Shown here piece after piece: positions 1 through 27,743 of a stretch of DNA of 29,567 nt (positions are counted from its first letter, which is position 1; each line of letters begins with the position of its first letter). Both the position numbers and the translations under genes were made by a program. The DNA comes from Thermoanaerobaculaceae bacterium (lineage in GTDB: Bacteria; Acidobacteriota; Thermoanaerobaculia; Thermoanaerobaculales; Thermoanaerobaculaceae): positions 1 to 29,567 of the forward strand of contig JALHTD010000463.1 in NCBI GenBank assembly GCA_022865555.1, given 5' to 3'. Under the pieces are notes generated by a model that did not search any database, was not told the DNA's origin, and was given only the letters and a program-made list of their open reading frames with translations.

Positions 1-2
1 GC

Positions 3-1178
3 TCGGAGCGGTTCGTCACCGACCTCACGCTCCCGCTGTGGGTACTGGTGCTGGGCGCTGCCGCGCTTTTCTCGAAGAAGAAAGGGGCTCGGGTGCTGGC
101 CGCTGCCGGCTGGACCCTGCTGGCTGCAAGCGTGGTAGCCGGGCTGCGTGGGCCGTACGTGGTGTGGGCGGTCCTCACCGGCGGGCTGGTGCGATACCCG
201 GGGAGGCTGGTGTTTGCGGCCGTGGTTGCCCTGGTGCCAGCGGCGGCGGCCTCGGTTGGCGAGCGCCGCCCGCCGGTCTGGAGCGGTGCAGCAGTGGCTC
301 TCCTGGCGCTGGGCGGTGGTGCGCTCGCGGGCGGGGGTGCGGTTGGGACGATCGTTCAGGGCCTCGCCGCGGGCGCCGCGTTCGCCGGCCCGGGCGCGCC
401 CGTCGCAGCGCTTCTCGGCAGCGCCGCGCTGCTGCCGGCCCACGCCAGCGTGCTCGCGTTCCGGCCAGCGGGTACCCAGAAAGCGGCGGCGTGCCTGGCG
501 GCTCAGAGGGACGGTGCGCCCCGGGTCTACGCGGTGCAGCCGTCCTGGAACCAACTGGGATGGGTCGCCGAGAACCGCGAGCGCGGCACGTCACTCGGCT
601 GGGGGTACACGGCGCTGCGCGACGGGCGCCGCACGGTTCGCACCTTCGCGCCGCTCCAGTCCGTGCGCCTGACCGAGCACCTGGACGAAGCGGACCGGGG
701 CCCCGTCGGGCGGTGGTGGCTGGACGCCCTGGGCGCTCGCCGGGTTGTGGCACAGCACCCGGTGCCGGGGATGGCGGCTCTCTGCGAGGAGGGCGGCCTC
801 ACCGTCTTCGACAACCCCCAGGCGTGGTCGGAGGTGGCGGTCGTGCGCACCATGCCGCGGCCGGGGGAGCGCCTCAAACCTCATGGGGAGGTGCTCGCCC
901 GCGAGGGCCGCGATGGCTCGCGGCGGTGGCGGGTTCGCGTCGATGCGGGCGGTGGGGTGCTGCTGTGGCTGGAGACTCCCGACGCGGGATGGCGCCTGCG
1001 CGTGGACGGCCGGCCTGCCGAGGCGGTGGCGGGCCCGGGAATCCTGCACGGCGTGGCCGTGCCGGCGGGAGACCACGAGGTGAGCGCGCGCTACCGCCCC
1101 CCCGGACTGGGCGGCGGGGCGGCGATTTCATTTGCGAGTCTGGTGGTTCTGGGGTGGGCGGCATGGCGACGCTGGTAA
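3..1178 (+). CDS. YfhO-family membrane protein (putative GT-C glycosyltransferase), C-terminal part; 5'-truncated by the window edge
   Basis: The frame is open from base 3 to TAA at 1176-1178. It has hydrophobic TM segments, then a soluble region, then a YfhO-type C-terminal signature 'WLETPDAGWRLRVDGRPAE...LHGVAVPAGDHEVSARYRPPG' and a last TM helix. Confidence 0.8.
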   Translation, partial: SERFVTDLTLPLWVLVLGAAALFSKKKGARVLAAAGWTLLAASVVAGLRGPYVVWAVLTGGLVRYPGRLVFAAVVALVPAAAASVGERRPPVWSGAAVALLALGGGALAGGGAVGTIVQGLAAGAAFAGPGAPVAALLGSAALLPAHASVLAFRPAGTQKAAACLAAQRDGAPRVYAVQPSWNQLGWVAENRERGTSLGWGYTALRDGRRTVRTFAPLQSVRLTEHLDEADRGPVGRWWLDALGARRVVAQHPVPGMAALCEEGGLTVFDNPQAWSEVAVVRTMPRPGERLKPHGEVLAREGRDGSRRWRVRVDAGGGVLLWLETPDAGWRLRVDGRPAEAVAGPGILHGVAVPAGDHEVSARYRPPGLGGGAAISFASLVVLGWAAWRRW

Positions 1179-3526
1179 CGGCCCTGTTCTTCGTGTCGGG
1201 CATGGTGGCGCTCGCCTTCGAGGTGGTCTGGGTGCGGGCCCTCGGGCTGGTGGTGGGGAACTCGTTGTGGGCCGCCGTGGCGGTGGTGGCGGCGTACATG
1301 GGCGGGATGGCGGTCGGCAGCGCTCTGGTGGCGCGCGTCATGCACCGCCTGCGGCGCCACCTGCGCCTCTACGGGGCGGCCGAGGCGGTGGCGGCCCTGG
1401 TGGCTCTCGTGACCGCGCCGGCGCTGCACGTCCTCCAGCGGCTGGCGGCCGGACTTGGTCCCGAGCCGCTCACCGGCTGGGGGCTGCCCCTGCTGGCGAG
1501 GTTCGCGCTCGCCTGGGCGTTCCTCGCGCTGCCGACGGTGGCCATGGGGGCCACGCTCCCGCTGCTGGTCGCTCGAGTGGGGCAGGAGAAGGCGCTGGCG
1601 TGGCGGGTCGGGCGCCTGTATGCCGCGAACACGCTCGGAGCGATGACCGGCGTGGTGCTGGCCGGCTTCGTTGCCCTTCCCGAACTGGGGGAGAGAGGCA
1701 CGCTCGCCGGCTTCGCGGCGCTCGGGCTAGTGGTCGCCGGCACGGCCTGGGTACTCGAGCCTCACCTGCCGGCAGTCGCGGTCGTCGCCGCGGACGGGCC
1801 ACGGGCGGGCCGGCGGTGGTGGCTGCTCTTCCCGGCGCTCTTCGGTTTCGTGGCGCTGGCCTGCGAGCTGGTATGGACCCGCGTCCTGCTCCTGCACCTG
1901 GGATCACGTGTCTACGCCTTTGCCCTGATCCTCGCGGTTTACCTGGGGGGGATCGCGATCGGTGCGGGGCTGGCGCGAGCGGCAGCGTCCTCGCCCCGCC
2001 GTGCGCTGGCAGCCTGCCAGGTTCTCCTGGGCGTGCTCCTGGCACTGCAGATCCCCCTGCTGGCGAGGTTCGGCGACGTTCTCGGTTGGATCGCCTACCA
2101 CGGGAGGCTCGCGAGCTTTGCCGAGCTGCAGCTCGGCCTCGCGCTCGCGGTGGCGGCGCTGATACTGTTGCCGGCCCTGGCGTTCGGGGCCAGCTTCCCG
2201 CTCGCGGTGGCGGCATACCCTTCGCGGGGGGCGGAGGCCTCGCGCACCGGTCTCGTGGCTGCGGCCAACACCGTGGGCGCCATCGCCGGCACGGTCCTGG
2301 GACCGCTCCTGCTCGTGCCTCTCGTGGGGACCCAAAACCTCATCCTGGGCCTCGGGGCGGCGAGCGCCCTCGCGGGGGTGATGCTCGCTCCCTCGCGCTC
2401 CCTGAGGGTAGCGGGGGCCGTGGTGGCGGCTGCGCTCGTGGTGGAGGCGGTGCTCGTGCCACGGGGGAGCGTGCTGCGCGGAGCGGCGGCCGTCGCGGAA
2501 GGGACGGTCGAGGAGCTGCGCGAAAGCACCTCGGCGACCGTGGTGGTGCGTCGGATCGCAGACGCGCGCGGGAGCTGGCGTTCGCTGGAGCTGAACGGTG
2601 TCAACGTCGCTGGGACGTCGCCGGAGTTGCGGGCGATCCAGCGGCTTCAGGGCCACCTCCCATTGCTCCTCCACGGCGGCCCCGAGAAAGTGCTGCACAT
2701 CGGCTTCGGATCCGGCGGGACCGCATGGGCGGTTGCGCAGCACCGGGTCGGACAGATCGTGGTGGCGGAGATCTCGCCGGAGGTCCTGGCGGTTTCCGAC
2801 AAGGTTTTCGGCGACGTCAACTTCGGCGTGCTGCACGACCCCCGGGTGCGGGTCCTGCTCAACGACGGCCGGAACGTGCTGCTGGCCACGCGGGAGAGGT
2901 TCGACGTGATCCTCTCCGACTCCATCCACCCCGTCTATGCCGGCAACTCGACCCTCTACACCCGCGAGTACTTCGAGCTCTGCCGCCGCCACCTGCGGCC
3001 GGGCGGGGTGGTTTCGATGTGGCTGCCGCTGTACTCCCTCACCGAGGAGTCGTACCTGGCGATCGTCCGGGCGTTTTGGGAGGTGTTTCCCTCCACCTGC
3101 ATCTGGTACGACCTGATGGTGCTGAACGAGTTCACGGTGGTGACCGGGTCCGTCGAGCCCGGCCCGGTAAGGCTGCGCTGGCAGTCGGTGAGCGATGCGG
3201 CGTTCGGGGGGACGCTGGCTGAGGCGGGGGTGCGGAGCCCCGAGAACCTGGCAACGATGCTGCTCCTGGGGCCCCGTGAAGTGGCTTCGCTGGTCAGCGA
3301 CGTACCCCCGCACATCGACGACTTTCCCGAGGTGGAGTACCGCTCCGGGCGTCTGCTGAACCGCGACGGCTCATGGCTCGCCAACCTCAGGATGCTCTAT
3401 GCCTGCCGCACCCGAAGCGATCCCTTCGCCACCTACCCAGGCGACTTCCGCGCGGCGGCGGGGGCGCGCGACGAGACGCTCAAGGCTCAGCTGCGGGAGC
3501 TGGCCGCGCGGGTCGCGCCCCGATAG
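1163..3526 (+). CDS. Fused MFS-like membrane domain / spermidine-synthase-like SAM-dependent transferase
   Basis: The ATG at 1163 overlaps the upstream stop. There are two repeated membrane halves ('SGMVALAFEVVWVRALGLVVG' and 'GFVALACELVWTRVLLLHLG'). The C-terminal Rossmann domain has 'VLHIGFGSGGTA', 'AEISPEV', 'NDGRNVL' and 'FDVILSDSIHP'. The ORF-track extension back to 38 is GC-rich junk. Confidence 0.88.
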   Translation: MATLVTALFFVSGMVALAFEVVWVRALGLVVGNSLWAAVAVVAAYMGGMAVGSALVARVMHRLRRHLRLYGAAEAVAALVALVTAPALHVLQRLAAGLGPEPLTGWGLPLLARFALAWAFLALPTVAMGATLPLLVARVGQEKALAWRVGRLYAANTLGAMTGVVLAGFVALPELGERGTLAGFAALGLVVAGTAWVLEPHLPAVAVVAADGPRAGRRWWLLFPALFGFVALACELVWTRVLLLHLGSRVYAFALILAVYLGGIAIGAGLARAAASSPRRALAACQVLLGVLLALQIPLLARFGDVLGWIAYHGRLASFAELQLGLALAVAALILLPALAFGASFPLAVAAYPSRGAEASRTGLVAAANTVGAIAGTVLGPLLLVPLVGTQNLILGLGAASALAGVMLAPSRSLRVAGAVVAAALVVEAVLVPRGSVLRGAAAVAEGTVEELRESTSATVVVRRIADARGSWRSLELNGVNVAGTSPELRAIQRLQGHLPLLLHGGPEKVLHIGFGSGGTAWAVAQHRVGQIVVAEISPEVLAVSDKVFGDVNFGVLHDPRVRVLLNDGRNVLLATRERFDVILSDSIHPVYAGNSTLYTREYFELCRRHLRPGGVVSMWLPLYSLTEESYLAIVRAFWEVFPSTCIWYDLMVLNEFTVVTGSVEPGPVRLRWQSVSDAAFGGTLAEAGVRSPENLATMLLLGPREVASLVSDVPPHIDDFPEVEYRSGRLLNRDGSWLANLRMLYACRTRSDPFATYPGDFRAAAGARDETLKAQLRELAARVAPR

Positions 3527-4566
3527 ATGGACGTCAGCTCGCGGGCGGTGCGCTCCCAGGTGAAGGTGTGGGCGCGGGCAAGCCCCGCCCCGACGGTTTC
3601 GCTGCGACGTCCGGGCTTGGCGAGGAGGGCGAGGACCGCCTCGCGCCAGGCGCCCGGATCGTCGGGGTCGAGGAGCACCGCCGCCTCGCCGCACACCTCC
3701 GGCAGCGCACCGGCGCGGGCGGCCAGCACCGGGCACCCGCAGGCCATGGCCTCGAGCGCGGGCAAACCAAACCCCTCGTTGCGGGACGGGAGCAGCAGTG
3801 CGAAGGCCCGCTGGTAGAGCTCCGCCAGCGCTCGATCGTCCGGGTTCGCCACGCGCCGCACGCGCCCCCGCAGGGCCGGGTCCGCGAGGCGGCGATCGGC
3901 GGCAGCCGCTCCCGCGACCACCAACGGCGGCAGCCTCTCGGCCTCCGGCGAGGCCAGCAGGGCGACGACGAGCTCGAGGTTCTTGTGTGGGTCGGAGCCC
4001 CCGACGAAGAGCAGGTGCTCAGGCGGCGTGGGCGTTGGAGAGGGGAGGAACTCGCTGCCGACGCCGAGGTGCGCGACGAATACCCTCTCCGGTGCAAGTC
4101 GCACGGTGGCGAGCAGCTCGGCCTTCGCGTGGTGGGAGATCGCATGCACAGCGGTCGCTCGTGCGAGGGACCGGATCGCCTGCCGCGCCCTGTGGCGGCG
4201 CCAGGGTTCCGGCGGTGATGGGAAGCGGAAAGGCGTGGCGTCGTAGAAGGTGGCGACGACCGGCACCGGGAGGCGGGCCGGTACGGTCCACGTCGGGAGG
4301 TGGAGCACGTCCACCGGTATGCGGCCGAGCGTCATCCGCCACGCGGGGCCGTCGAACAGAAAAGCTCCCCTGCGCGGGCGGTGCAGTGCGACGATCCGTG
4401 CGGCGAGCGGGTACCATGGTTGAGGTACAGGAGCTCCGTGGGGAACGAACAGCACGACCTCGCCCGGCAGCAGCCGCAGCAGCTCCTCGGCGAGGGAACG
4501 CGTCACGCGGCCGAACCCGCGGTTGGGGTCGAGAAACGCCGCCCGGGCATCGAGGCCGATCCGCAT
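3487..4566 (-). CDS. Glycosyltransferase family 4 (MtfB/WbaZ-like)
   Basis: Starts 'MRIGLDARAAF' with AGGAGG 8 nt upstream. Motifs: 'TFYDATP', 'LFVGGSDPHKNL' and the GT4 signature 'EGFGLPALEAMACG'. Confidence 0.92.
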   Translation of the reverse strand: MRIGLDARAAFLDPNRGFGRVTRSLAEELLRLLPGEVVLFVPHGAPVPQPWYPLAARIVALHRPRRGAFLFDGPAWRMTLGRIPVDVLHLPTWTVPARLPVPVVATFYDATPFRFPSPPEPWRRHRARQAIRSLARATAVHAISHHAKAELLATVRLAPERVFVAHLGVGSEFLPSPTPTPPEHLLFVGGSDPHKNLELVVALLASPEAERLPPLVVAGAAAADRRLADPALRGRVRRVANPDDRALAELYQRAFALLLPSRNEGFGLPALEAMACGCPVLAARAGALPEVCGEAAVLLDPDDPGAWREAVLALLAKPGRRSETVGAGLARAHTFTWERTARELTSIYRGATRAASSRS

Positions 4567-4630
4567 ACCGAAACCCTCCTCATAGCCGCGCTCTGACAAG
4601 CTTCAGCCGCTGCTCGACGTGCGCTCCGCT

Positions 4631-4640
4631 TAGAATAGTA
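4631..4640. promoter_or_regulatory. Possible overlapping divergent -10 elements (TAGAAT on +, TACTAT on -)
   Basis: AT-rich patch 'TTAGAATAGTA' in the intergenic gap between the divergent GT4 and GT2. No convincing -35 on the + strand. Confidence 0.35.
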
Positions 4641-4747
4641 CGAGTGAGAACTGGCATCCCAAATTCAACCGTCGCGACCCCGGGCAGGCACTCCCCCGCG
4701 TGGGCGAGATGCCGGCAGGGGCGGTGAGCGTGGAGGCGCAGGCGACA

Positions 4748-5584
4748 ATGTCGGACGTCGTGCCCTCCTTTTCAATTGCAACGCCCTCTCTGGACCAGTT
4801 TGAGTACCTGCGCGTGTGCGTGGCAAGCATCGAGGCGCAGGGTTACCCTCGGGTGGATCAGATCGTGATCGACGGCGGCTCCAGCGATGGCACGCGGGAG
4901 TTTCTTGCCGGCAGCGTCGGTGTGGTGTCCTACTGGCAGTGCAAGCCGGACCGCGGCCAGAGCCACGCACTTAACATCGCTTTGCATCACGCCACCGGTG
5001 ACTGGGTCGGCTGGCAAAACGCCGACGATTTCTACCTCCCGGGGGCCTTCTGGCGGGTTGCACAGCTGATCATGGACCATCCCCAGGCCGACGTGGTGGT
5101 GGGTGACACCATCCTCGTCGACGTCCGCGGCATGGCGTTGGGGGCAATCGGGGTGTGCCCCGTGCCCGCGTCGCGCTGGTTGGAGGGGTTCTGGCCATAC
5201 AACCAGTCGGTTTTCTTCCGACGATCGTTGCTGGAGCAGGCAGGTCCGGTCGACGAGTCCCTCCATCTCCACATGGACACTGACCTTTTGGCCCGGGTGG
5301 CGCAGTTGGGCCCGCGCGTGGTCTACCTTGAGGCGCCCCTGGGCGCTCACCGCAAGCACGCCGCGGCAAAGACAATCGAGGGAGCCACCGGTCGCGCGAG
5401 CCAGCGCGAGCGTGAGCTCTTGGAGCGACGCTACGGGCGCAAGCTCTGGCCCGAGGGGCGGGCGGCCCGCCTCCGGCATCGCCTTCGCTGGCATCTCATC
5501 CGTATGCGTGCATTCGGCCCGGCAAGTGTCGTCAACAGGCTGGCCCAAAGAGCCGCGCGCTCTGCTAGGGTCGTGGTCGTGTGA
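4748..5584 (+). CDS. Glycosyltransferase family 2 (WcaE/WfgS-like)
   Basis: Motifs 'SIATPSLDQ', 'IDGGSSDGT', 'DRGQSHALN', 'GWQNADD', 'MDTDL' and 'KHAAAKT'. The start at 4748 is preferred; 4700 is an alternative. Confidence 0.9.
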   Translation: MSDVVPSFSIATPSLDQFEYLRVCVASIEAQGYPRVDQIVIDGGSSDGTREFLAGSVGVVSYWQCKPDRGQSHALNIALHHATGDWVGWQNADDFYLPGAFWRVAQLIMDHPQADVVVGDTILVDVRGMALGAIGVCPVPASRWLEGFWPYNQSVFFRRSLLEQAGPVDESLHLHMDTDLLARVAQLGPRVVYLEAPLGAHRKHAAAKTIEGATGRASQRERELLERRYGRKLWPEGRAARLRHRLRWHLIRMRAFGPASVVNRLAQRAARSARVVVV

Positions 5585-5594
5585 GCATAACCTT

Positions 5595-5629
5595 GGCTGG
5601 GGTGCATGGCCGCGCGATCGCACCCTGCC
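5595..5629 (+). other. Intergenic GC-rich hairpin (GGC-T-GGGGTGC ... GCACCCTGCC)
   Basis: Inverted repeat of about 10 bp between the GT2 and GT4 genes. There is no U-tract, so it is not a classic intrinsic terminator. Confidence 0.3.
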
Positions 5630-5659
5630 GACTGCTGCTGATCGCCTCGCCGTAGGGAG

Positions 5660-6718
5660 ATGGGTTTGAACGGTGTGCTTCGCGTCGGCGTAGATGGCAA
5701 GCCGCTACTGCCCCCTCGGGCCGGCGTCGCTCGCTACCTCGAGGGGTTGCTCGCCGGCTGCGCGGCGGTGTCGCACCCCGAGGTTGAACTCGACGTCGTG
5801 ATGCCGGGCGGACCCCGGCGGACGCTGCCCTGGGTGCTCTGGAACCTGCAGCGCGCGTCCGCGCGCGGCTACTCGGTCTTCCACTTCCCCTTCTATTACA
5901 CGCCGCTCGCCCCGCGCTGCCCGGTCACCGTCGCGATCCACGACGTGCTGGTGCTCGAACACCCCGAGTGGTTCCCACGGCCCGTCGCCAACCCCCTCCG
6001 CTACCTGCTCCCGCGGGGGGCACGCCTTGCAGCGGCGGTGGTCACCGGCTCGCGCTGCGTGGCGGACGCGATCGCCGAGCGCTGCGGGATCCCCCGCGAG
6101 CGCGTTCGCCTTACCGGCTACGGCGTGGACCGTGCACGGTTCGCGCCTCCAACCGCGGAGCGGCTCGCGGAGGCGCGCGTGCGCCTCGCGCTCTCCAGGC
6201 CTTACCTGCTCCAGCTCGGGGCACTGGAGCCGCGGCGCGGCGTGGACCTGGCGCTCGCCGCCGTCGCCTCGTTGCGGGAGTGCGACCCGGACCTCGAGCT
6301 CGTGCTGGTTGGAACGCCGCGGGCGCATGTGCCGGCGCTCGAGCAGCCACCCCCCTGGGTGCGGCTCCTCGGGTGGGTGGAGGACTCCGACCTGCCCGCA
6401 ATCTACGCCGGAGCAGCGGTTGTACTCGCGCCCTCTCGCGGCGAGGGGTTCGACCTGCCGCTGCTTGAAGCTCTGTCGTGCGGCGCCGTAGTGGTTGCGT
6501 CCGACATCCCGGTGCACCGCGAGCACTTCGCCCCGGCGGTGGAGCTCTTCGCCAGTGGCGACGCCGAGGCGCTCGTGGAGGCGGCCGCCAGGGTACTTGG
6601 AGACTCGGAGCGAGCAGCGAGGCTGCGCACGGCGGGCCGCGCGCTCGCGGCGGGGTTCAAATGGGAAGATGTGGCGCGCCGCCACCTCGACCTCTGGCTG
6701 GAGGTGGGGCGAGGATGA
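5660..6718 (+). CDS. Glycosyltransferase family 4 (MtfB-like)
   Basis: Motifs 'LRVGVDGKPL', 'GVARY', 'VAIHDVLVLEHPEWF' and 'EGFDLPLLEALSCG'. RBS GGGAG immediately upstream. Confidence 0.92.
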   Translation: MGLNGVLRVGVDGKPLLPPRAGVARYLEGLLAGCAAVSHPEVELDVVMPGGPRRTLPWVLWNLQRASARGYSVFHFPFYYTPLAPRCPVTVAIHDVLVLEHPEWFPRPVANPLRYLLPRGARLAAAVVTGSRCVADAIAERCGIPRERVRLTGYGVDRARFAPPTAERLAEARVRLALSRPYLLQLGALEPRRGVDLALAAVASLRECDPDLELVLVGTPRAHVPALEQPPPWVRLLGWVEDSDLPAIYAGAAVVLAPSRGEGFDLPLLEALSCGAVVVASDIPVHREHFAPAVELFASGDAEALVEAAARVLGDSERAARLRTAGRALAAGFKWEDVARRHLDLWLEVGRG

Positions 6719-7659
6719 GGGCCGGGGCCGTGGTCGTCAACTTCAACGGAGGCGCGGACCTGCCCGCCTGCCTCGCGGCGTTGAAGGCCCAGACGGTGCC
6801 GGTGGACGTCGTGCTGGTGGACTGCGCCTCGACCGATGGAACGCGCGCCCTCGCCGAGCAGCCGCCGCCCGGGGTGCGTGGCCTGCCGCTTCCCGAAAAC
6901 GTCGGGTACGCAGGCGGGTGCGCGGCGGGCCTCTCGCTCCTCGACGCCTCGGTCGAGGTGATCGGTTTCTTCAACCCCGACTGCTACCCCGCGGCCGACT
7001 ACTTCGCGGCCTGCGAGGAGCTCTTCTCGCGGGAGTCGGATGTGGGAGGGGTGGCCGGCAGGCTGCTGCGCCCGGGCGGAGCCACGCTGGATTCCTGCGG
7101 CCAGGTGCTCACGCCGTTCCTGCTGCGGGTCCGCGACCGCGGCTACGGCGCGCCCGCTTCGGGAGCCTTCGAGACCCGAAACCGCGTGCTGGCGGCCTGC
7201 GGCGCGGGGATGGTCTACCGGCGTGCCGCGCTGGCGGCAGCCGCGGTCGAGGGCGAGGTGTTCCCGGCCGACTTCTTCGCCTTCTGGGAGGACCTCGACC
7301 TCGGCTGGCGGGTGAGCAACGCGGGGTGGCACGTGATCTACGAGCCGCGGGCGGTCGCCACCCACCGCCGCGGCGCAACCGCCGCACCGGGCGCGGGAAG
7401 GTTGATCTTTCGTCGCCCCACGACACTTGCCGCCGGCATGCTCGCCAACCGCTGGGCCACCCTGCTGCGCAACCTGCACCCGGTTGATTTCCTCCTGCGC
7501 TTGCCCGTACTTTTGCCTGGAGAGGTGCTGATGCTGAGCGTGCTCGTGCTGCGCCGACCGGGGCTGCTACCTGCGCTGCGGGCGGCTTTGCCTCGCGTGC
7601 GAAGGGCGGCGCGTCAACGTCGTCTGCTCCCCCGCCGCCGACTCGGGGAGCTGCTGTGA
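6715..7659 (+). CDS. Glycosyltransferase family 2 (WbbL/GlfT1-like subgroup)
   Basis: ATGA overlap with the upstream gene. Motifs 'VVNFN', 'VDCASTDGT', 'NVGYAGG', 'NPD', 'FWEDLDLGWR' and 'YEPRAVATH'. Confidence 0.9.
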   Translation: MRAGAVVVNFNGGADLPACLAALKAQTVPVDVVLVDCASTDGTRALAEQPPPGVRGLPLPENVGYAGGCAAGLSLLDASVEVIGFFNPDCYPAADYFAACEELFSRESDVGGVAGRLLRPGGATLDSCGQVLTPFLLRVRDRGYGAPASGAFETRNRVLAACGAGMVYRRAALAAAAVEGEVFPADFFAFWEDLDLGWRVSNAGWHVIYEPRAVATHRRGATAAPGAGRLIFRRPTTLAAGMLANRWATLLRNLHPVDFLLRLPVLLPGEVLMLSVLVLRRPGLLPALRAALPRVRRAARQRRLLPRRRLGELL

Positions 7660-8669
7660 GCGTGATGCTCATCCCACTGGCGTTCGTGCTGGCGCTCCTG
7701 CTCGGGCTCTACTTCACACCGCTGGCGCGCGAGGCGGCGCTGCGCTTCGGGATCGTGGACCGTCCCGACGGCCGGCTCAAGCAGCAGACAACACCGGTGC
7801 CGTACCTTGGGGGCCTCGCGGTCTTCCTGGCCTACTTGGTGGCCCTCGGCATGGTGTTCGCGTTCGACACCCTGCTGCTCGGCCTGCTTCTGGCTGGCAC
7901 CCTCACGCTGCTCGTCGGGCTGGTGGACGATTTCGGCGTGTTGACCCCGGCCGCAAAGCTCGCCGGGCAGGCGGTGGCTGTGTTAGTGCTGCTGCGCAGC
8001 GGCGCGGTCATCGAGTTGACCGAGGTGCCCCAGGGGTTGCGCTGGCCGCTCGCTGCCCTGTGGCTGTTCGCAGTCTGCAACGCCTTCAACCTGCTGGACA
8101 TCATGGACGGGCTCGCGGCCGGAGTCGGGACCGTCGCTGCCCTCGCGTTCGGGGTGGTGGCGCTCGCCACGGGGGAGTACCCCGAGGCTGCGGCCAGCTT
8201 CGCGCTGGCCGGAGCGCTTGTGGGGTTCCTGGTCTTCAACTTCCAGCCGGCCCGTATCTACCTCGGGGACGCCGGCTCGCTGGCGATCGGGATCACGCTC
8301 GGCGCGCTGGCCCTTGCGATCCGCTGGAGCGAGAGGAGCGCGGCGGGGTTCCTCGCGCCTCTCGCCATCCTGGCCGTGCCCCTGGCCGACACTGCCTACG
8401 TGAGCGTGCTGCGCGCCCGCGCCGGCAGGCCGTTCTGGCACGGCAGCCAGGACCACTTTCCACTGCGCCTGCACCGCCTGCTGGACGGTAGCGTGCGCAG
8501 GACCGTGACCGCAGTCCTCGGCGTGGCCGTCGTGGGCGCGATGGTGGGCGTGGGGACCGCGACGCTCTGGGCGTGGGAGGTGGGGGTGTGGGCCCTCGGT
8601 GTCTACGGGCTCGGGTTCGTGGTCCTGCTGATCGTGCTGGTGCGGGTGCGGATGGAGGCGCCGCGGTGA
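7656..8669 (+). CDS. WecA/TagO/MraY-family polyprenyl-phosphate sugar-1-phosphate transferase
   Basis: GTGA overlap and about 10 TM segments. Motifs 'VDRPDGRLKQQ..PVPYLGGLA', 'GLVDD', 'NAFNLLDIMDGLA' and 'FNFQPARIYLGDAGS'. Confidence 0.9.
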   Translation: MSVMLIPLAFVLALLLGLYFTPLAREAALRFGIVDRPDGRLKQQTTPVPYLGGLAVFLAYLVALGMVFAFDTLLLGLLLAGTLTLLVGLVDDFGVLTPAAKLAGQAVAVLVLLRSGAVIELTEVPQGLRWPLAALWLFAVCNAFNLLDIMDGLAAGVGTVAALAFGVVALATGEYPEAAASFALAGALVGFLVFNFQPARIYLGDAGSLAIGITLGALALAIRWSERSAAGFLAPLAILAVPLADTAYVSVLRARAGRPFWHGSQDHFPLRLHRLLDGSVRRTVTAVLGVAVVGAMVGVGTATLWAWEVGVWALGVYGLGFVVLLIVLVRVRMEAPR

Positions 8670-9961
8670 GGCGCATCGTGGTGCTCGGGGCCGGCCTCAC
8701 CGGGCTCTCGGCCGCCTACCACCTCAGGGAGCGCGGGGTGGCCGCGGAGGTTCTCGAGAGGGACGCGGGGCCGGGCGGAGCGTGCAGGACGGTGGAGAGG
8801 AACGGGTTCTCCTTCGACCTCACCGGGCACCTCCTCCACCTCGCACGGGCGGAGAGCCGGCAACTCCTCGGGTCGTTGGGTGTGAGGAGGGCGCTTCGGA
8901 GCCACCGGAGGCGGGCAAGCGTCGCGCTGGCCGGGGCCGTCACGCCGTATCCGATCCAGATCAACACGTACCGATTGCCGCGCGAGGTGCGGCGGGACTG
9001 CCTCGTCGGTTTCGTCGAGGCACGAATGCGGCCGGAGGAGCCGAGCGGCGAGCGGACCACCTTTGCCGACTGGGTCATGAGCCAGTTCGGTGAGGGCTTT
9101 GCAAAGCACTTCTTCTTCCCCTACAACCGCAAGCTGTACTGCACGGACCCCGCGGAGCTGACCAGCGACTGGGTGGGGCGCTATGTGCCGCGCCCCTCCC
9201 TCGTCGATGTGATCGAAGGGTCGCTCGGGCTCTACCGCAAGGCGGTCGGCTACAACGCCACGTTCTTCTACCCCCGCCGGGGCGGGATCCAGCTCCTCGC
9301 GGATGCCGTTGCCGCGACGCTTCCTCCGCTGCGCCTGGGGGTCCCGGTGCGGGCCGTGCACCTGGGCGCGCGCGAGCTGGTGCTGGACTCCGGCGAAACC
9401 GTGGGGTGGGACGTGCTGATCGCCACGGCGCCGCTGCCGCACCTGGCGGCGATGACGGCCGACCTGCCCACCGAGCTGCGGCACGCGGCGGCGCGCCTGC
9501 GAGCGGTCGGAGTCGTGAACCTGAACCTGGGCGTGCGGGGTCCCGCACCGCGGAGGGAGCACTGGCTCTACGTGCCCGAGGAGAGGTTCCCGTTCTACCG
9601 TGTCGGGATTCCCTCCAACCACGGTGACGTGGCGCCGCCCGGCTGCCACACGCTCTCGGTGGAAGTCAGCGTGCCCGCCGGCGCCCCGGCCCCTGCGGAC
9701 CTGGCCGAGCGCTGCCTCGCCGGGCTCTCGGAGCTCGGGCTGCTGCGGGACCGCTCGAGCGTGGAGGTCACGGAGCAGATCCGCCTCGACCCCGCGTACG
9801 TGATCTTCGACGCGGCCCGGCCGGGACTGGTGGCCTCGCTGCGCGATCACTACCTCGCCTCCGGCGTGCTGCTCTCGGGCCGCTGGGCGGAGTGGAAGTA
9901 CTCCACGATGGAGGACGCCCTCTGGGACGGGGCGGCGGTGGCCCGGCGGGTGGCGTCGTGA
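8666..9961 (+). CDS. FAD-dependent oxidoreductase/mutase of the HemY-like fold; most resembles eukaryote-type UDP-galactopyranose mutase
   Basis: GTGA overlap. Dinucleotide-binding 'VVLGAGLTGLSAAY', then 'FDLTGHLLH', 'PYPIQIN', 'FFPYNRKLY', 'YNATFFYP..GG', 'WLYVPE..FPFYR' and 'SGRWAEWKY'. Confidence 0.75.
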   Translation: MRRIVVLGAGLTGLSAAYHLRERGVAAEVLERDAGPGGACRTVERNGFSFDLTGHLLHLARAESRQLLGSLGVRRALRSHRRRASVALAGAVTPYPIQINTYRLPREVRRDCLVGFVEARMRPEEPSGERTTFADWVMSQFGEGFAKHFFFPYNRKLYCTDPAELTSDWVGRYVPRPSLVDVIEGSLGLYRKAVGYNATFFYPRRGGIQLLADAVAATLPPLRLGVPVRAVHLGARELVLDSGETVGWDVLIATAPLPHLAAMTADLPTELRHAAARLRAVGVVNLNLGVRGPAPRREHWLYVPEERFPFYRVGIPSNHGDVAPPGCHTLSVEVSVPAGAPAPADLAERCLAGLSELGLLRDRSSVEVTEQIRLDPAYVIFDAARPGLVASLRDHYLASGVLLSGRWAEWKYSTMEDALWDGAAVARRVAS

Positions 9962-11112
9962 GGCCGCTGCGCGTCATGCACGCGATCACGATGCTCGAGC
10001 TGGGCGGAGCCCAGCGCAACACGCTCGACACCGTTGCCTCGCTCGACCGCCGCGAGTTCGCGGTCGCCCTCACGTGTGCGAGCCAGGGGGAACTGCTCCC
10101 GGAAGCTCGAGCGCTTGCCGATGTGGAGCTGTTCGAGCTGCCCCACCTGCGGCGGGAGGTGCGGCCGCTCGCTGACATGCGCGCACTCTCCGAGTTGCGG
10201 CGGGCGATGCGGCGGTTTCGGCCGGAGGTCGTTCACACCCACTGCTCCAAGGCCGGGATCCTCGGGCGCCTGGCCGCCCGCCGCGAGGGCGTGCCGGTAG
10301 TGATCCACTCGATCCACGGCTTCGGCTTCGGGCCGCATCAACCCTCTCTCGTGCGTTTCGCGTTCCTGACCGCCGAGCGGCTGGCCTCGCGCTGGACCAC
10401 GACGTTCGTCGCGGTCTCCCGGCGCAACCTGGAGGAGGGCGTGCGTCTGGGGCTCTTCCCCGCCTCGCGCGCGCGGGTGATCCGGTCGGGGGTCGACCTG
10501 GCGTCGTTCGCGTCGCACCGGGGTGGCAACGCTCTCCGGCGAGAGCTCGGGATCCCGGTTGACGCGCCGCTGGTGGTGCAGATCGCGTGCTTCAAGGCGC
10601 AGAAGGCGCCCGAGCGGTTCGTCGAGGTCGCGGCGCGCTTGGCGTCCGGCTTTCCCGCGGCGCACTTCTTGCTCGTGGGGGACGGGGCGCTTCGGCGGCG
10701 GCTCGAGCGACTCCGGCGCGAGCACGGTCTGGAGGGGCGTCTCCACCTGCCGGGGTGGCGGCGGGACGTGCCGGCGATCTACGACGCCGCCACGGTGGTG
10801 ACGCTCACGTCGCGTTTCGAGGGGCTGCCGCGGGTGCTCGTCGAGGCGCTCGCGGCAGGCGTTCCGGTGGTGGCGATGGCGGTGGACGGTGTGAACGAGG
10901 TGGTCCGCGACCGAGAGAACGGCTTCCTCGTACCGCCCGATGATGTGGCCGGCGTGGCGGAGCGCGTCGGCGAGATCCTCCGCGACGGCGCGCTGCGGTC
11001 GCGCCTTTCGGCTCAAGCGCTGGAAGGGCTGCAGGAGTTCGGGCGGGAAGCGATGGTGCGGCAGCAGGAGGAGTTGTACCGGGAGCTGGCATGCCAGGCT
11101 GGTTTGCGCTAA
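9958..11112 (+). CDS. Glycosyltransferase family 4
   Basis: GTGA overlap. Motifs 'ITMLELGGAQRN', 'HTHCSKAGILGRLAA', 'FKAQKAPERF' and 'EGLPRVLVEALAAG'. Confidence 0.92.
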   Translation: MRPLRVMHAITMLELGGAQRNTLDTVASLDRREFAVALTCASQGELLPEARALADVELFELPHLRREVRPLADMRALSELRRAMRRFRPEVVHTHCSKAGILGRLAARREGVPVVIHSIHGFGFGPHQPSLVRFAFLTAERLASRWTTTFVAVSRRNLEEGVRLGLFPASRARVIRSGVDLASFASHRGGNALRRELGIPVDAPLVVQIACFKAQKAPERFVEVAARLASGFPAAHFLLVGDGALRRRLERLRREHGLEGRLHLPGWRRDVPAIYDAATVVTLTSRFEGLPRVLVEALAAGVPVVAMAVDGVNEVVRDRENGFLVPPDDVAGVAERVGEILRDGALRSRLSAQALEGLQEFGREAMVRQQEELYRELACQAGLR

Positions 11113-11864
11113 CGGTCGCCGCCGCCTACGGGACGGTGTTCGGGAGCTTCCTGAACGTGGTGGTGCACCGCCTGCCGCGTGGGATGTCGCTGCTTCGGCC
11201 CGGCTCTCACTGCCCGGCGTGCGGTGCCCCGGTGCGCTGGTTCGACAACGTCCCGGTGCTCTCCTACCTGCTGCTCAGTGGGCGATGCCGCGCCTGCCGG
11301 GTGGCCATCTCGCCGCGCTACCCGCTCGTGGAGCTCGCGAGCGGGGCACTCACCGTGGCGGTCGTTGCGCGCTTCGGCTTGACGTTGCAGGGCCTGGAGG
11401 CAATGCTGCTGGTGATGCTGCTGCTGCCGCTGGCGTTCATAGACCTGGAGCACCACCTGCTCCCGGACGTGCTGACGTTGCCCGGGATCGCCGTGGGCCT
11501 CGCGGGCTCGCTTGCGGGTGGGCTGGTCCCGCTTCTCGACGCGGCGACCGGGGCAGCGGTCGGAGCGGCGGTGCCGTACGCGGTGATCGTGATCTATCGC
11601 TGGCTGCGCGGCGCCGAGGGGATGGGGCTCGGCGACGTCAAGCTGCTGGCGATGATCGGGGCGTTCCTGGGCTGGCGTGGCGTTCTTCTCACGCTGGGCC
11701 TGGCGGCCACTGCCGGCGCGCTCCTCGGGCTCACGCTGATCGCGCTCGGAAGAGGGAAAAGGGACACCGAGTTGCCGTTCGGAACGGTTCTGGCGTTCGC
11801 CGCGATGATCGTGCTCTTCGCCGGGGACCGACTGCTGATCGGTCTGGGGTGGGTCCGGCCATGA
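11091..11864 (+). CDS. pilD: Type IV prepilin peptidase/N-methyltransferase (A24)
   Basis: 'GSFLNVVVHRLPRG', two CxxC motifs (CPAC, CRAC), 'ISPRYPLVEL', and catalytic Asp motifs 'IDLEH' and 'GMGLGDVKL', plus 'LPFG'. Confidence 0.95.
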   Translation: MPGWFALTVAAAYGTVFGSFLNVVVHRLPRGMSLLRPGSHCPACGAPVRWFDNVPVLSYLLLSGRCRACRVAISPRYPLVELASGALTVAVVARFGLTLQGLEAMLLVMLLLPLAFIDLEHHLLPDVLTLPGIAVGLAGSLAGGLVPLLDAATGAAVGAAVPYAVIVIYRWLRGAEGMGLGDVKLLAMIGAFLGWRGVLLTLGLAATAGALLGLTLIALGRGKRDTELPFGTVLAFAAMIVLFAGDRLLIGLGWVRP

Positions 11865-13510
11865 CCAGCGGCCTGCCCTCCCACCGGTTCCGCGAGGCGC
11901 AACTGCTCATCGGGGCCGCGCTCCTGATGCTGGTGGGGATGGTCGTCGTGGAGATGGTCGGGATGCTGGCTGTGGCGCGCCTGGTCGAGGACGAGGCGCG
12001 GCGCGCCTCGATGGCGGCCGCGCACCTCGCCGCCTCCCGGATCGCGGGCGGCGAGTCCGCGCGCTTTGCCGCGGCGCTCCGGCAGGAAGGGTGGGGTCTC
12101 GCGGTGCTCGTCAGCGGCAGGGTCGTCGAGCGGGTTGGACAGGCGGGCCCCTCGGAGCCGGCATGGTGGCCGTGGGAGTCGCGGGAGCAGTGGGAGCGGG
12201 CCGGGCAGCGCGTGGGGGGACCGGTCGCAAGGGGCGACGGAAGCGTGTTTGTCGCCTACCAACCGCTGGCGGACGGCCGCGTGGTCCGGGCAGTGGTGCC
12301 GGCATCGGGCGCGGGCGCCGTTGGGCGCCTGCGCGACGTGGGTGCAGCACTCGCGCTGGTGGTCGCGGTGGGCGGGGGTCTGCTGGCGTGGGCGCTGATC
12401 GCCCGTGTGCTCGCCCCCTACCGCGAGCTGCTCGCGGAGGCGGTGCGGGTGACACGGAAACCCGGTGGGGAGGCCGAGGACCGCTTCCTGGTCGAAACGT
12501 TCCGCGACACCGTGCGGCGCCTCGAGGTCTCGGAGGCGGCTCTGCGTCGGCGGGCGGATGACCTGGAGGTGCTCGCGGAGGTGCTGACGCGGGGCTCCGC
12601 CGCCGGGGTGGTGATCACCGACCCCGGGGGCACCGTGCGGGCCGCCAACTCAGCGGCCGCCGAGCTCGCCCCTGATCTGGCGGTCGGCGGGGCTCTCCCG
12701 GCGACGTTGGCCGCTGGCGAGCGGAGCAGACGGCTTTCGGAGCGGGTCGTGGAGGTGCGGCGACTCCCGCTGCTGGCGGACAGCGGGGCAGCCCAAGGGG
12801 AGGTACTGTTTCTGACCGACCGGACGAGCGTGGAGGCGCTCGAGCGGGCCCTCGCCGAGCGCGAGCAGATGGCGGCCCTGGGTGAGCTGGCTGCGGGGAT
12901 GACCCACGAGCTGCGCAATGCCCTCGCCACCATGCGCGGCTACCTGCGCCTGCTCCCCGACGCCAAGCGTGAGGATCGCGCGCGCTTCGTGGCCGCCATC
13001 AACGACGAGGCGGAAGGTCTGGCCGAGCTGTTGGACCGCTTCCTTCGCTTCGCGCAGCCGCGCGAGCTCCGGCGCGAGCCGGTCGAGCTGCTGGCGCTCG
13101 TCGAGGAGGCGGCGCGCAAGGTGCGCACCGCGTTTCCCGACATCACCCTGGGAGTCGAGGGCGCGCCGATCACCACGGTGGGCGATGCGCTGGCGCTCGG
13201 CGTCGTCGTGGAGAACCTCCTGCGCAACGCGGCCGAGGCGGTCTCGAGCCAGGGTGGCTCGGTACTGGCGCGGGTGGAATCCTCCCCCGGCATGGCGCGA
13301 GTCGTGGTGGAGGACGAGGGGCCTGGGGTGAGCGACGAGCTGCGGGGACGGCTGTTCCTGCCGTTCGCCTCCAGCAAGGCTTCCGGTGGTCTCGGTCTCG
13401 CCCTCGCGCGCCGCTTCGCGCGCCTGCACGGGGGCGACGTCGGGCACGAACCCCGGCCTGGGGGCGGGTCTCGCTTCGTGGTCTGGCTACCCCTCCAGGG
13501 GGTCGCATGA
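11861..13510 (+). CDS. Membrane-bound sensor histidine kinase (2 TM, extracytoplasmic domain, HAMP/PAS-like linker, HisKA, HATPase)
   Basis: ATGA overlap with pilD. H-box 'AGMTHELRNAL', N-box 'NLLRNAAEA', G1 'EDEGPG', F-box 'FLPFASSK' and G2 'GGLGLAL'. Confidence 0.92.
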   Translation: MTSGLPSHRFREAQLLIGAALLMLVGMVVVEMVGMLAVARLVEDEARRASMAAAHLAASRIAGGESARFAAALRQEGWGLAVLVSGRVVERVGQAGPSEPAWWPWESREQWERAGQRVGGPVARGDGSVFVAYQPLADGRVVRAVVPASGAGAVGRLRDVGAALALVVAVGGGLLAWALIARVLAPYRELLAEAVRVTRKPGGEAEDRFLVETFRDTVRRLEVSEAALRRRADDLEVLAEVLTRGSAAGVVITDPGGTVRAANSAAAELAPDLAVGGALPATLAAGERSRRLSERVVEVRRLPLLADSGAAQGEVLFLTDRTSVEALERALAEREQMAALGELAAGMTHELRNALATMRGYLRLLPDAKREDRARFVAAINDEAEGLAELLDRFLRFAQPRELRREPVELLALVEEAARKVRTAFPDITLGVEGAPITTVGDALALGVVVENLLRNAAEAVSSQGGSVLARVESSPGMARVVVEDEGPGVSDELRGRLFLPFASSKASGGLGLALARRFARLHGGDVGHEPRPGGGSRFVVWLPLQGVA

Positions 13511-14778
13511 ACGCCCCGCTCCTCGTGGTCGAGGACCGCCGCAGCCTGGGCGAGATGCTGGCCGAAACGCTGCGCACGGAGGGGTACGATGTGGAGCTGG
13601 TGCTGCGGGGCGACACCGCGATGCAGCGCCTTCAGGAGAGTGGACCATACTTGGCGGTGCTCACCGACCTCAAGCTTCCGGGGGCAGACGGCCTGACGGT
13701 GCTGCGCACCGCTCGGACAGTCGACCCGCTGCTGCCGGTGTTCCTGATCACGGGCTACGCCACGGTGGAGACGGCCGTGGCGGCGCTCAAGCAGGGGGCG
13801 CGGGACTACTTCCCGAAGCCCCTTGACATGGAGCGCGTTCTGGAAGGCCTGCGCGCGGCCTGCGAGCCGAGGCGGGCGCTCCTGGCCACGCCCCCCACCG
13901 GCGAGGGACTCCCAGAACTCGTGGGCGCCGCCCCGGCGTTCGCAGGCGTGGTGACGGCGCTGCGCCGCGTGGCCCCCACCGACGCGGCCGTTCTCCTGCT
14001 CGGACCCTCGGGGAGCGGCAAGGAACTCTTCGCACGGGCTCTCCACCAGCTCTCGCGGCGGGGCGGAGGACCCTTCGTGCCCTTCAACTGCGCCGCGGTG
14101 CCCGAGAGTCTGGTGGAGTCGGAGCTGTTCGGGCACGAGCGGGGTGCGTTCACCGGCGCCAACGCCCGCCACGTCGGGCGCTTCGAGCAGGCCCACCGTG
14201 GCACGCTCTTCCTCGACGAGATCGGCGAGGTGCCGCTCTCGACGCAAGCCAAGCTGCTGCGCGCCCTCGAGGAGCACCGCATCACCCGGCTGGGTGGAGA
14301 GGGCGAGATCGTGGTTGACGTGCGCGTGGTGGCCGCGTCCAACCGCGACCTCGAGGACGCGGTCACCGGGGGCTCGTTCCGCCGCGACCTCTTCCACCGC
14401 CTGAACGTGTTCCCGATCCGGCTGCCTTCCCTCGTGGAGCGACGCGAGGACATCCCGGCCCTGACCCTCCACCTGCTGACACGCGCCGGTGGCCGCCACG
14501 GGGTTCCTGTGCCCACTCTGCGGCCTGCGGCGATGGCGGCCCTGGTGCTGGCGCCGTGGCCCGGGAACGTGCGGGAGCTCGCCAACCTGCTGGAGCGGGT
14601 GGTGATCCTGGCAGAGGGCCGCCCGGTGGGGGTGGCGGAGCTGGGGCTCGACGCGGCCGCGTGTCGGGAGGGCCTCGCGGACGCCCTCGCCCGCCGCCTC
14701 GCCGTCCGCCTTGCGGGGGGGGACTCCGAGGAGCTGGCCGGTTTCCTGGGTGTGTCGGCGGGCGAGCTGCAGCGCTAG
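13507..14778 (+). CDS. Sigma-54-dependent response regulator (NtrC/PilR-like: REC, AAA+, short HTH)
   Basis: ATGA overlap. Receiver motifs 'VVED', 'LTDLKLP' and 'FPKP'; Walker A 'GPSGSGKE'; 'ESELFGHERGAFTGA'; Walker B 'LFLDEIG'; 'WPGNVREL'. Confidence 0.95.
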   Translation: MNAPLLVVEDRRSLGEMLAETLRTEGYDVELVLRGDTAMQRLQESGPYLAVLTDLKLPGADGLTVLRTARTVDPLLPVFLITGYATVETAVAALKQGARDYFPKPLDMERVLEGLRAACEPRRALLATPPTGEGLPELVGAAPAFAGVVTALRRVAPTDAAVLLLGPSGSGKELFARALHQLSRRGGGPFVPFNCAAVPESLVESELFGHERGAFTGANARHVGRFEQAHRGTLFLDEIGEVPLSTQAKLLRALEEHRITRLGGEGEIVVDVRVVAASNRDLEDAVTGGSFRRDLFHRLNVFPIRLPSLVERREDIPALTLHLLTRAGGRHGVPVPTLRPAAMAALVLAPWPGNVRELANLLERVVILAEGRPVGVAELGLDAAACREGLADALARRLAVRLAGGDSEELAGFLGVSAGELQR

Positions 14779-16112: not shown

Positions 16113-16181
16113 TGTGGAATTCTACCCTCACCGGCCGGCCGGATGGCTTCGGATGCCGGCGGTTTGTGTATCCTTGCAGGC

Positions 16182-19433: not shown

Positions 19434-19570
19434 GTCCTCACCCGTCGGATCTGGCTGCCCACGCAGGCGGAAACTCTGCGCGGGCCGGCGCGTACCCAGT
19501 CGCGAGAGCGTGCCGCGTCGGTACATCTGGGCAAGATCGGTGCCGCCGCCGGGGAGGTGGGGGTGCGAAT

Positions 19571-20413: not shown

Positions 20414-20457
20414 GCGCTGCGTGCGACCACCCGCGGCGATAAGGGTACGGTGCGCAC

Positions 20458-21141: not shown

Positions 21142-21204
21142 GAGAAGCCCGGAGCCGCATCCGCGGCCACGGTTTCGCGCATCTGGTGTCGGGGTCGAGA
21201 GGGC

Positions 21205-26974: not shown

Positions 26975-27051
26975 CGGTCTTTCTCCTCGTTGATGAGGGA
27001 CGATCTCCCGCCCCAGAGCAACGTCTACGCGAGCGGCACGGCACCGGTTTC

Positions 27052-27729: not shown

Positions 27730-27743
27730 CCCCGCACCAAGCA

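Follow-up and report, generated by a model that had tools for sequence, protein, structure and literature searches.

A probable pilin O-glycosylation island built into a type IVa pilus gene cluster of the Acidobacteriota

The DNA analysed here (the window, 29,567 nucleotides) is the whole of contig C389 in a 537-contig metagenome-assembled genome of 3.08 Mb (72% G+C), which comes from an uncultured sediment Acidobacteriota bacterium (Thermoanaerobaculia-like). We interpret it as the 3′ half of a type IVa pilus cluster of the Acidobacteriota, with a built-in island for pilin O-glycosylation, an interpretation to which we assign a probability of roughly 0.6; the pili are probably coated with sugar. 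This explanation draws on gene identities assigned by homology, on the joining of two contigs of the assembly, on a gene order conserved among related genomes and on sigma-54 promoter motifs at the pilin genes.

Pilin genes and Wzy_C enzymes beside the window

The window begins inside a gene of the YfhO family (YfhO1), and the remainder of that gene leads to its neighbour. The YfhO1 ortholog in G012, a genome of the same genus, has 708 residues, of which 1-184 match C432:13530-14081, on another contig of our assembly, and 318-708 match window positions 3-1175. Because C432 ends inside the same YfhO1 gene, this alignment places it next to the window on the left, across a gap of about 400 bp. 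In G012 the region lies on a single 1.6-Mb contig, where pilin genes and glycan block are contiguous, and in the orientation of the window HAD and ManC are followed by a periplasmic binding protein, Wzm/Wzt, another YfhO-like gene, which is encoded on the opposite strand, two prepilins, a Wzy_C protein of 520 residues, a Wzy_C protein of 612 residues with a tetratricopeptide repeat (TPR) domain, YfhO1 and then the genes of the window. C432 carries the same 5′ genes, and the joined locus runs from ManC through Wzm/Wzt, YfhO2, pilin2, pilin1, two Wzy_C+TPR genes, YfhO1, a gene for a membrane-fused spermidine-synthase-like (MFS/SpdSyn-like) protein and the glycosyltransferase genes GT4a and GT2a to the stretch from GT4b to a response regulator. 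An original prediction, made from the window alone, had pointed to the 5′ flank as the place to seek pilin genes and further YfhO genes, and two prepilin genes and a second YfhO are indeed found there, both on C432 and in G012. Its statement that no Wzy, WaaL, PglL or flippase was visible is true of the window, but a Wzy_C pair and Wzm/Wzt lie on the adjoining contig.

Pilin1 (C432:9858-10316) is followed directly by a Wzy_C gene (C432:10445-12010). Both pilins have a short leader and the cleavage motif G/FTLIE, and an alignment covering many families shows almost no variation in the first 45 or so residues of mature pilin1. Near residue 115-130, ahead of a conserved T-[TS]-[DS]-F, the pilin1 orthologs carry a hypervariable loop rich in Gly, Ser, Thr and Ala, which would suit a surface patch that is exposed and possibly modified. 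TGGCAC-N5-TTGCT, a near-consensus sigma-54 promoter motif followed by a strong ribosome-binding site, stands 44 nt before the pilin1 start and at the same distance in 14 of 15 ortholog loci; a copy with one mismatch precedes pilin2. Across the 3.08 Mb of the genome there are 14 such motifs against about 6 expected, two of them at pilin genes, and none was found before the glycosyltransferase block (4600-4700 and 5585-5660) or elsewhere on the plus strand of the window. A second near-consensus sigma-54 promoter lies at C138:2963 (minus strand), about 55 nt before a prepilin-like gene that is the first of three in a row.

The two Wzy_C proteins of C432 match PF04932 at 42 and 51 bits, and each ends in a TPR domain. 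An Arg and a His are invariant in 14 orthologs, and a profile aligns both with the catalytic region of WaaL. A structural model (predicted local distance difference test score, pLDDT, 90; predicted template modelling score, pTM, 0.90) finds its best fold match in the WaaL ligase 7tpg, to which the TPR domain is an addition. A single-sequence PDB search with Wzy_C returned nothing useful. The full-length profile matched PDB 9rmk, entitled 'Oligosaccharyltransferase' (E 2e-13), which was not used: the profile of the membrane core did not match it, so that the similarity is mostly TPR-based, and a look through the literature turned up no paper on 9rmk as such an enzyme. C432 also supplies a candidate exporter, in which Wzt has a Wzt_C domain and Wzm belongs to PF01061.

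The overlap chain and its conservation

Eight plus-strand genes between 5660 and 14778 are joined by overlaps, and all eight frames are open and of the expected length. They encode, in order, GT4b, GT2b, a WecA-type transferase, a predicted eukaryote-type UDP-galactopyranose mutase, GT4c, the prepilin peptidase PilD, a kinase and a sigma-54 regulator. Every junction was read from the sequence, and the chain stands as it was originally described: ATGA overlaps occur at 6715, 11861 and 13507, GTGA overlaps at 7656, 8666 and 9958, and the ATG of PilD at 11091 lies 22 bp inside GT4c, the stop of which is at 11112. In addition, the MFS/SpdSyn-like gene overlaps the end of YfhO1, its ATG at 1163 being 16 bp upstream of the YfhO stop. 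Four-base overlaps are weak evidence by themselves because they are common in operons at 72% G+C. No convincing terminator was found inside the chain (two weak matches against 5.6 expected), nor any sigma-70-like promoter or convincing terminator in 1-16500. Domain scans and solved relatives bear out the identities first given to the chain (GT4, GT2, WecA-like, FAD mutase, GT4, pilD, kinase and regulator). The GT2, GT4, membrane methyltransferase-like protein and YfhO reported upstream of it are all present, but the GT4, whose strand had not been stated, is on the minus strand and the Pfam score of the YfhO protein falls below threshold. The features, with glycosyltransferases of families 2 and 4 abbreviated as GT2 and GT4, are as follows.

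3-1178, plus strand: YfhO1, the C-terminal 391 residues of a YfhO-family (GT-C-like) membrane protein; PF09586 22 bits, sub-threshold
1163-3526, plus strand: fused polytopic membrane (MFS)/spermidine-synthase-like protein; NF037959 120 bits (cut-off 40), PF01564 85 bits
3487-4566, minus strand: glycosyltransferase GT4a; PF00534 74 bits, PF13439 50 bits
4700-5584, plus strand: glycosyltransferase GT2a, a variable gene; PF00535 68.5 bits
5660-6718, plus strand: glycosyltransferase GT4b, the first gene of the chain; PF00534 87.5 bits
6715-7659, plus strand: glycosyltransferase GT2b; PF00535 46.5 bits
7656-8669, plus strand: initiating polyprenyl-phosphate N-acetylhexosamine-1-phosphate (HexNAc-1-P) transferase of the WecA/WbpL/TagO class; PF00953 116 bits
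8666-9961, plus strand: predicted eukaryote-type UDP-galactopyranose mutase (UDP-galactofuranose maker); PDB 4dsg
9958-11112, plus strand: glycosyltransferase GT4c; PF00534 117 bits, PF13579 81 bits
11091-11864, plus strand: prepilin peptidase PilD; PF06750 (A24_N_bact) 116 bits and PF01478 (Peptidase_A24) 72.5 bits, both over cut-off
11861-13510, plus strand: sensor histidine kinase; PF00512 (HisKA), PF02518 (HATPase)
13507-14778, plus strand: sigma-54-dependent response regulator (receiver and AAA+); PF00158 224 bits, PF00072 73 bits

The flavin adenine dinucleotide (FAD) enzyme at 8666-9961 is predicted to be a eukaryote-type UDP-galactopyranose mutase. Among solved structures it is closest to the eukaryote-type mutases from Trypanosoma and Aspergillus, which it matches over nearly the full length (4dsg, E 2.9e-44 over residues 3-414; 3ute, E 5e-40), and in alignment with the solved enzymes it keeps the flavin-loop His and the motifs NATF..P.RGG, WLY.PE..PFYR and GR...W.Y. 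A reading as protoporphyrinogen/amine oxidase was dropped, the mutase relatives fitting instead. The WecA-type transferase has 11 predicted membrane helices and matches TIGR02380 (WecA) at 83 bits, under the cut-off of that model. GT2b is a candidate galactofuranosyl transferase or other chain-extending enzyme. Of all the glycosyltransferases of the island, GT4c is the most widely kept, with orthologs of 38-53% identity beside the mutase in 18 of 20 distant loci; it was absent from the tblastn results in the other two, L068 and L071. GT4b is kept in 19 of 20 loci of the order. In the strain represented in two sediment metatranscriptome runs, GT4b gains one base after 6486 and loses one at 6490, a compensated frameshift by which one or two residues differ. 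GT4a is convergent with the MFS/SpdSyn-like gene before it and probably starts at the ATG at 4566, because the alignment with relatives begins at residue 12. Of the 15 family-f1 loci compared, only 4 carry GT2a, among them 3 of the 10 from the same genus, and it was not found in G012; this patchy distribution suggests that the glycan varies between strains. PEP-CTERM/exosortase, mycothiol and other named glycosyltransferase families were ruled out, all NCBIfam matches being far under their cut-offs.

All 20 genomes examined from the order retain the arrangement GT4b-GT2b-WecA-mutase-GT4c-PilD. PilD has eight hydrophobic segments and is the only match to this query in the genome, as it is in 37 of 41 relatives with one match each. 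Within the order, family f1 alone has the kinase and regulator after PilD; in the sister family f2, SelA comes directly after PilD. For the phylum we took a sample of 300 genomes, with the mutase in 103 and PilD in 292 (G064 belongs to the sample, its mutase match lying outside the counted set). A mutase match of E<1e-80 was obtained in 51 genomes, and in at least 24 of these, from at least 13 families, PilD lies 1-6 kb away, on the same strand save in one; mutase and PilD are on different contigs or far apart in 15 of the 51, among the matches listed.

Twenty linked distant loci were compared together with their upstream flanks. The recurrent order is (PilC)-PilS-PilR-YfhO-(sulfatase-family membrane protein)-pilin(s)-Wzy_C-Wzy_C/TPR-(Wzx)-GTs-WecA-mutase-(AsnB)-GT4c-ABC ATPase-ABC-2 permease-TPR protein-PilD-kinase(-regulator)-(minor pilins), in which ABC stands for ATP-binding cassette and brackets mark variable members; PilC precedes the pilin genes along with PilS-PilR in one locus. 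The clearest example is the 49% G+C genome G271 (L094 plus L078). The adjacency of pilin and Wzy_C recurs in about a dozen further genomes from many families. A phylum-wide pilin-alignment search drew in records titled Thermoanaerobaculia, Acidobacteriota, Polarisedimenticolia and Aminicenantes. Where a near-full-length pilin homolog was available with at least 3 kb of downstream flank, Wzy_C or YfhO was found within 4 kb downstream in 13 of 27 loci, and most of the loci that had neither near the pilin are titled as other phyla. The linkage of glycosyltransferases, mutase and PilD, for which the original prediction had looked to related genomes, thus holds within the order and in at least 13 families beyond it, with the kinase and regulator missing in f2; together with the 5′ flank it supports the proposal that the glycan genes belong with type IV pilin genes.

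In G271 a polytopic protein of the sulfatase/phosphoethanolamine-transferase family (L094:7466-9646) is encoded between YfhO and pilin; it is absent from the corresponding locus of our genome. We take this family to be that of the Neisseria pilin phosphoform transferase PptA, and by analogy the protein may add a further pilin modification.

In 18 of the 20 distant loci the trio of ABC ATPase, permease and TPR protein separates GT4c from PilD, and in L068 and L071 it comes directly after the mutase. It was not found in the window, and within the window's order it never occupies the slot between GT4c and PilD: family f2 has it about 35 kb upstream, and our own family retains only a diverged ABC ATPase/ABC-2 permease pair on another contig (C269 in this genome). 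The GT4c-pilD overlap is a derived feature, because the trio has left this slot in the window's order. On C269 (2455-7900) the ABC pair is accompanied by a 331-residue open reading frame (ORF) without family match and lies upstream of a receiver-PAS-GGDEF-EAL protein; the pair may be a relocated remnant of the pilus-cluster trio, now beside cyclic di-GMP signalling. A minimal locus, L119, consists of PilS-PilR-pilin-ABC-permease-TPR-PilD, and because it has none of the glycan genes we regard these as an insertion between pilA and pilD. Other loci (L104, L105, L112, L128 and L131) show the layout pilin-pilin-YfhO-PilD-kinase without a glycan island.

The two-component pair at the end of the chain had been associated with pilSR, a link that did not survive comparison. 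The kinase has two membrane helices around an outside domain of about 130 residues, as against the six-helix PilS sensor of the Pseudomonas type, followed by a PAS-like part, HisKA and HATPase; a homologous kinase follows PilD in 12 of 20 distant loci, and none was found in family f2. The regulator has no HTH_8 match and stops in the middle of a Fis-type helix-turn-helix (HTH), about 40 residues short of a distant ortholog with a full HTH. This short length is kept family-wide, and its TAG stop overlaps that of the convergent SelA gene within CTAG at 14775-14778; the truncated protein may act without binding DNA. It is 47-51% identical to the regulators that follow PilD in distant loci. The PilS-PilR found beside distant pilin genes has its best match in our genome not in the window pair but on C295 (kinase 2971-4563, regulator 4569-5906), where the regulator has a full Fis-type HTH and where there are also matches to PilB/PilT-type (T2SSE) ATPases. 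By these comparisons the window pair is a second, PilD-linked two-component pair and not the PilSR ortholog.

The product of the island and its transfer

Several observations weigh against our interpretation. Our two pilins end in ..QTN and ..QVK, not in Ser/Thr as do TfpO/TfpM substrates; among their orthologs some end in Thr and others in Gln, and no sequon is defined for the group. The sole solved chain that matches the transmembrane core of Wzy_C is WaaL, also its best fold match, and the fold is common to WaaL ligases and Wzy polymerases. ManC and Wzm/Wzt with a Wzt_C domain on C432, like a GT9 gene within the G271 island, are typical of O-antigen clusters. A GT2 of the GtrB/CsbB type, with two C-terminal membrane helices, is absent within the window, the rest of the genome not having been searched; GT2a has no hydrophobic segment, and GT2b has one and no C-terminal helix pair. 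The housekeeping genes SelA and YchF are equally syntenic within the order, so that synteny at that level alone proves little. In both metatranscriptome runs there are contigs 98-99% identical to ours, some of which span the junctions 7656-11091 and 9958-11861, but depth is flat, convergent genes included, and the regulator is joined on one contig to the convergent SelA; these contigs may reflect DNA carry-over and are no evidence for an operon transcript.

The resemblance to WaaL and to O-antigen clusters would be explained if the island made a surface polysaccharide that is not attached to pilin, namely an ABC-exported galactofuranose O-antigen or exopolysaccharide (EPS), with the Wzy_C proteins acting as WaaL ligase and/or polymerase. 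Such an island could stay in the pilus cluster because pili and polymer cooperate, in EPS-dependent retraction or matrix anchoring. WecA, mutase and ABC exporter together form the layout of the Klebsiella and mycobacterial galactan pathways, and Wzt partially matches the galactan-export model NF050108 (174 bits, under the cut-off). Nevertheless, Wzy_C genes come directly after the pilin genes in most loci with a pilin1 ortholog, the TPR domain of both Wzy_C proteins has no counterpart in the solved WaaL, and the spare Wzy_C genes elsewhere (three in this genome, seven in G012) could serve lipopolysaccharide. In lineages that lack the island, YfhO takes its place between pilin and PilD, and the proximity of Wzy_C or YfhO to pilin across the 27 loci likewise speaks for the pilus. 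A free polysaccharide, the main rival to pilin glycosylation, seems to us unlikely, and an alternative to be taken seriously.

It is also conceivable that pilD and the two-component pair are simply downstream of a polysaccharide operon, the overlaps being compact packing. Four-base overlaps are frequent in high-G+C genomes, SelA, a TPR gene and YchF are just as syntenic within the order, and family f2 dispenses with the kinase/regulator pair. However, over at least 13 families mutase and PilD remain linked, flanked on the other side by pilins and PilSR, which would not be expected of unrelated neighbours, and pilin genes and glycan block are contiguous in G012. We consider mere co-location very improbable.

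Pilin glycosylation, the interpretation that we prefer, suggests the following pathway. The genes assigned to donor synthesis by homology are the PF00953 enzyme, three GT4, two GT2 and the mutase in the window, with Wzm/Wzt on C432. The WecA-like enzyme would load HexNAc-1-P onto undecaprenyl phosphate, and the GT4 and GT2 enzymes would extend the chain on the cytoplasmic face from donors that include UDP-galactofuranose supplied by the mutase. The lipid-linked glycan would be flipped by Wzm/Wzt in this lineage; elsewhere the conserved ABC pair may do so, and at least one other lineage (G271) has a Wzx. One of the Wzy_C+TPR enzymes, or both, would then move the glycan en bloc to Ser/Thr of pilin, and perhaps of other proteins, and YfhO-family GT-C enzymes could add more sugars from undecaprenyl-phosphate-sugar donors. 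PilD, translationally coupled to the last glycosyltransferase, would cleave and N-methylate the prepilins, while the SpdSyn-like putative methyltransferase would tailor the glycan or the pilin.

YfhO-type GT-C enzymes use undecaprenyl-phosphate monosaccharides, and Wzy_C O-oligosaccharyltransferases take a WecA-primed undecaprenyl-diphosphate oligosaccharide. The original prediction had assigned transfer to YfhO as the probable enzyme. Since the WecA-primed undecaprenyl-diphosphate donor fits Wzy_C, and the window has no GtrB/CsbB-type GT2, Wzy_C is the more likely en-bloc transferase. YfhO is nonetheless linked to pilins, as the pilin-pilin-YfhO-PilD modules of other genomes show. Its family label is supported by a feature match of the ortholog and by topology: in an Atlas feature search with the full-length YfhO1 ortholog, 95 of 100 matches fell in YfhO sets (score 0.98), and the protein has about ten membrane helices, a large loop and a C-terminal helix. 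With PF09586 the full-length G012 orthologs score 21.3 and 21.0 bits, as low as the window fragment (cut-off 28.5), and a distant ortholog, L094:9643-12213, reaches 28.8 bits. Enzymes of the YfhO family O-glycosylate proteins in streptococci (PMC12041528).

In translation the SpdSyn-like protein reads GFGSGG where GGGDG would be expected, and DSIHP at the position of the D-x-x-D-P amine box. With the Asp of the first motif and the second Asp of the amine-binding box both missing, it is a probable S-adenosylmethionine-dependent methyltransferase rather than an aminopropyltransferase. The gene is found again beside that of the mutase in family f18 and in further loci labelled Thermoanaerobaculia (L100). 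That a single cluster should combine two routes of pilin modification, en-bloc transfer of a galactofuranose oligosaccharide by TPR-Wzy_C and stepwise addition by YfhO, with methyltransferase tailoring and PilD tied to the last glycosyltransferase, is a more elaborate proposal that we put forward as distinctly doubtful.

The remainder of the window holds genes of other kinds. After a TPR gene come two plus-strand ORFs of 327 and 290 residues (19430-21293) without Pfam match, the first with two hydrophobic segments. On the minus strand (21205-27753) lies a resistance-nodulation-division (RND) efflux set of AcrB-type pump, membrane-fusion protein and TetR/CecR-type repressor; the membrane-fusion ORF has 868 residues, the first 550 or so without match, and is possibly an over-long high-G+C ORF or includes a second gene. 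PmbA/TldD-type peptidase genes follow the efflux set at 27877-29567.

Comparison with known systems

Pilin glycosylation has been documented mainly in a few proteobacterial pathogens, where it affects aggregation, the surface chemistry of the pilus and recognition by phages and antibodies, and the transferases serve in making conjugate vaccines (PMC9829042). Our full-text literature search found no paper joining Acidobacteria with pilin glycosylation and none linking YfhO to pilins. Modification of pilins by Wzy_C enzymes is of a known kind; what would be new here is the phylum, the placing of the pathway within the pilus cluster, a mutase of eukaryote type, a pair of Wzy_C enzymes fused to TPR domains, the YfhO genes and the fusion of GT4c to pilD. 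If our interpretation is correct, glycosylated pili would be an ancient and widespread trait of the Acidobacteriota, a large and mostly uncultured phylum of soils and sediments, YfhO enzymes would gain a new class of substrate, and TPR-fused Wzy_C enzymes would be new candidate O-oligosaccharyltransferases. The locus also offers a case of operon remodelling, in which loss of the ABC-TPR trio fused a glycosyltransferase gene to pilD.

The Wzy_C-type oligosaccharyltransferases of pilins and other proteins include TfpO, PglL, PglS and TfpM of Acinetobacter and Moraxellaceae, and the pilA-tfpO (pilO) system of Pseudomonas aeruginosa 1244 (PMC9829042). As in these, a Wzy_C membrane enzyme is here encoded beside the pilin, with a predicted undecaprenyl-diphosphate-glycan donor begun by an enzyme of the WecA/WbpL class. 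Acinetobacter carries one pilin-specific and one general O-oligosaccharyltransferase, and here too two Wzy_C enzymes stand side by side. Unlike TfpO/PglL, however, both of our enzymes have a C-terminal TPR domain, the pilins are without terminal Ser/Thr, and WaaL is the only named solved relative of the transmembrane core. Furthermore, the whole glycan pathway (mutase, 4-5 glycosyltransferases and exporter) lies inside the pilus cluster and is not borrowed from an O-antigen or capsule locus.

Two further systems bear on the YfhO genes. TfpW, which acts on the group IV pilins of P. aeruginosa, is a GT-C arabinofuranosyltransferase (bioRxiv 10.1101/2020.04.19.049825), and it resembles the present case in that a polytopic GT-C-type enzyme is encoded beside a pilin gene and a furanose sugar is involved; it differs in using decaprenyl-phosphate-arabinofuranose, in place of the galactofuranose that the predicted mutase would supply, and is not YfhO-family by name. 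The streptococcal YfhO-family protein O-glycosyltransferases are PgtC2 (with GtrB) and PgfM1/PgfM2 (with PgfS) (PMC12041528), and CsbB-YfhO of B. subtilis acts on lipoteichoic acid (PMC5836110). These resemble our predicted YfhO-family GT-C enzymes and act outside the membrane on Ser/Thr-rich protein regions or polymers. Unlike ours, they are paired with an undecaprenyl-phosphate-sugar GT2, of which none was recognised in the window, and pilins are not among their known substrates.

The D-galactan I of Klebsiella O1/O2 and the mycobacterial galactan are WecA-primed and ABC-exported and depend on a prokaryote-type mutase (Glf). Initiation by a WecA-class enzyme, supply of UDP-galactofuranose and ABC-2 export with Wzt are common to these pathways and ours, whereas the mutase here is of eukaryote type. 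To our knowledge those galactans go to lipid A-core or peptidoglycan and not to pilin.

Finally, the type IVa pilus cluster of Myxococcus xanthus holds PilGHI and two PilRS pairs (PMC6060248). By gene order, the distant Acidobacteriota backbone, PilS-PilR-pilin-ABC ATPase-ABC-2 permease-TPR-PilD-kinase(-regulator), is like it, but a glycan island of 10-15 kb lies between pilin and the ABC pair, and in the window's order, without the ABC trio at that place, GT4c abuts PilD. The genes of M. xanthus run pilS-pilR-pilA-pilG-pilH-pilI-pilD-pilS2-pilR2, and the PilD, kinase and regulator genes of the window stand at the position of pilD-pilS2-pilR2.

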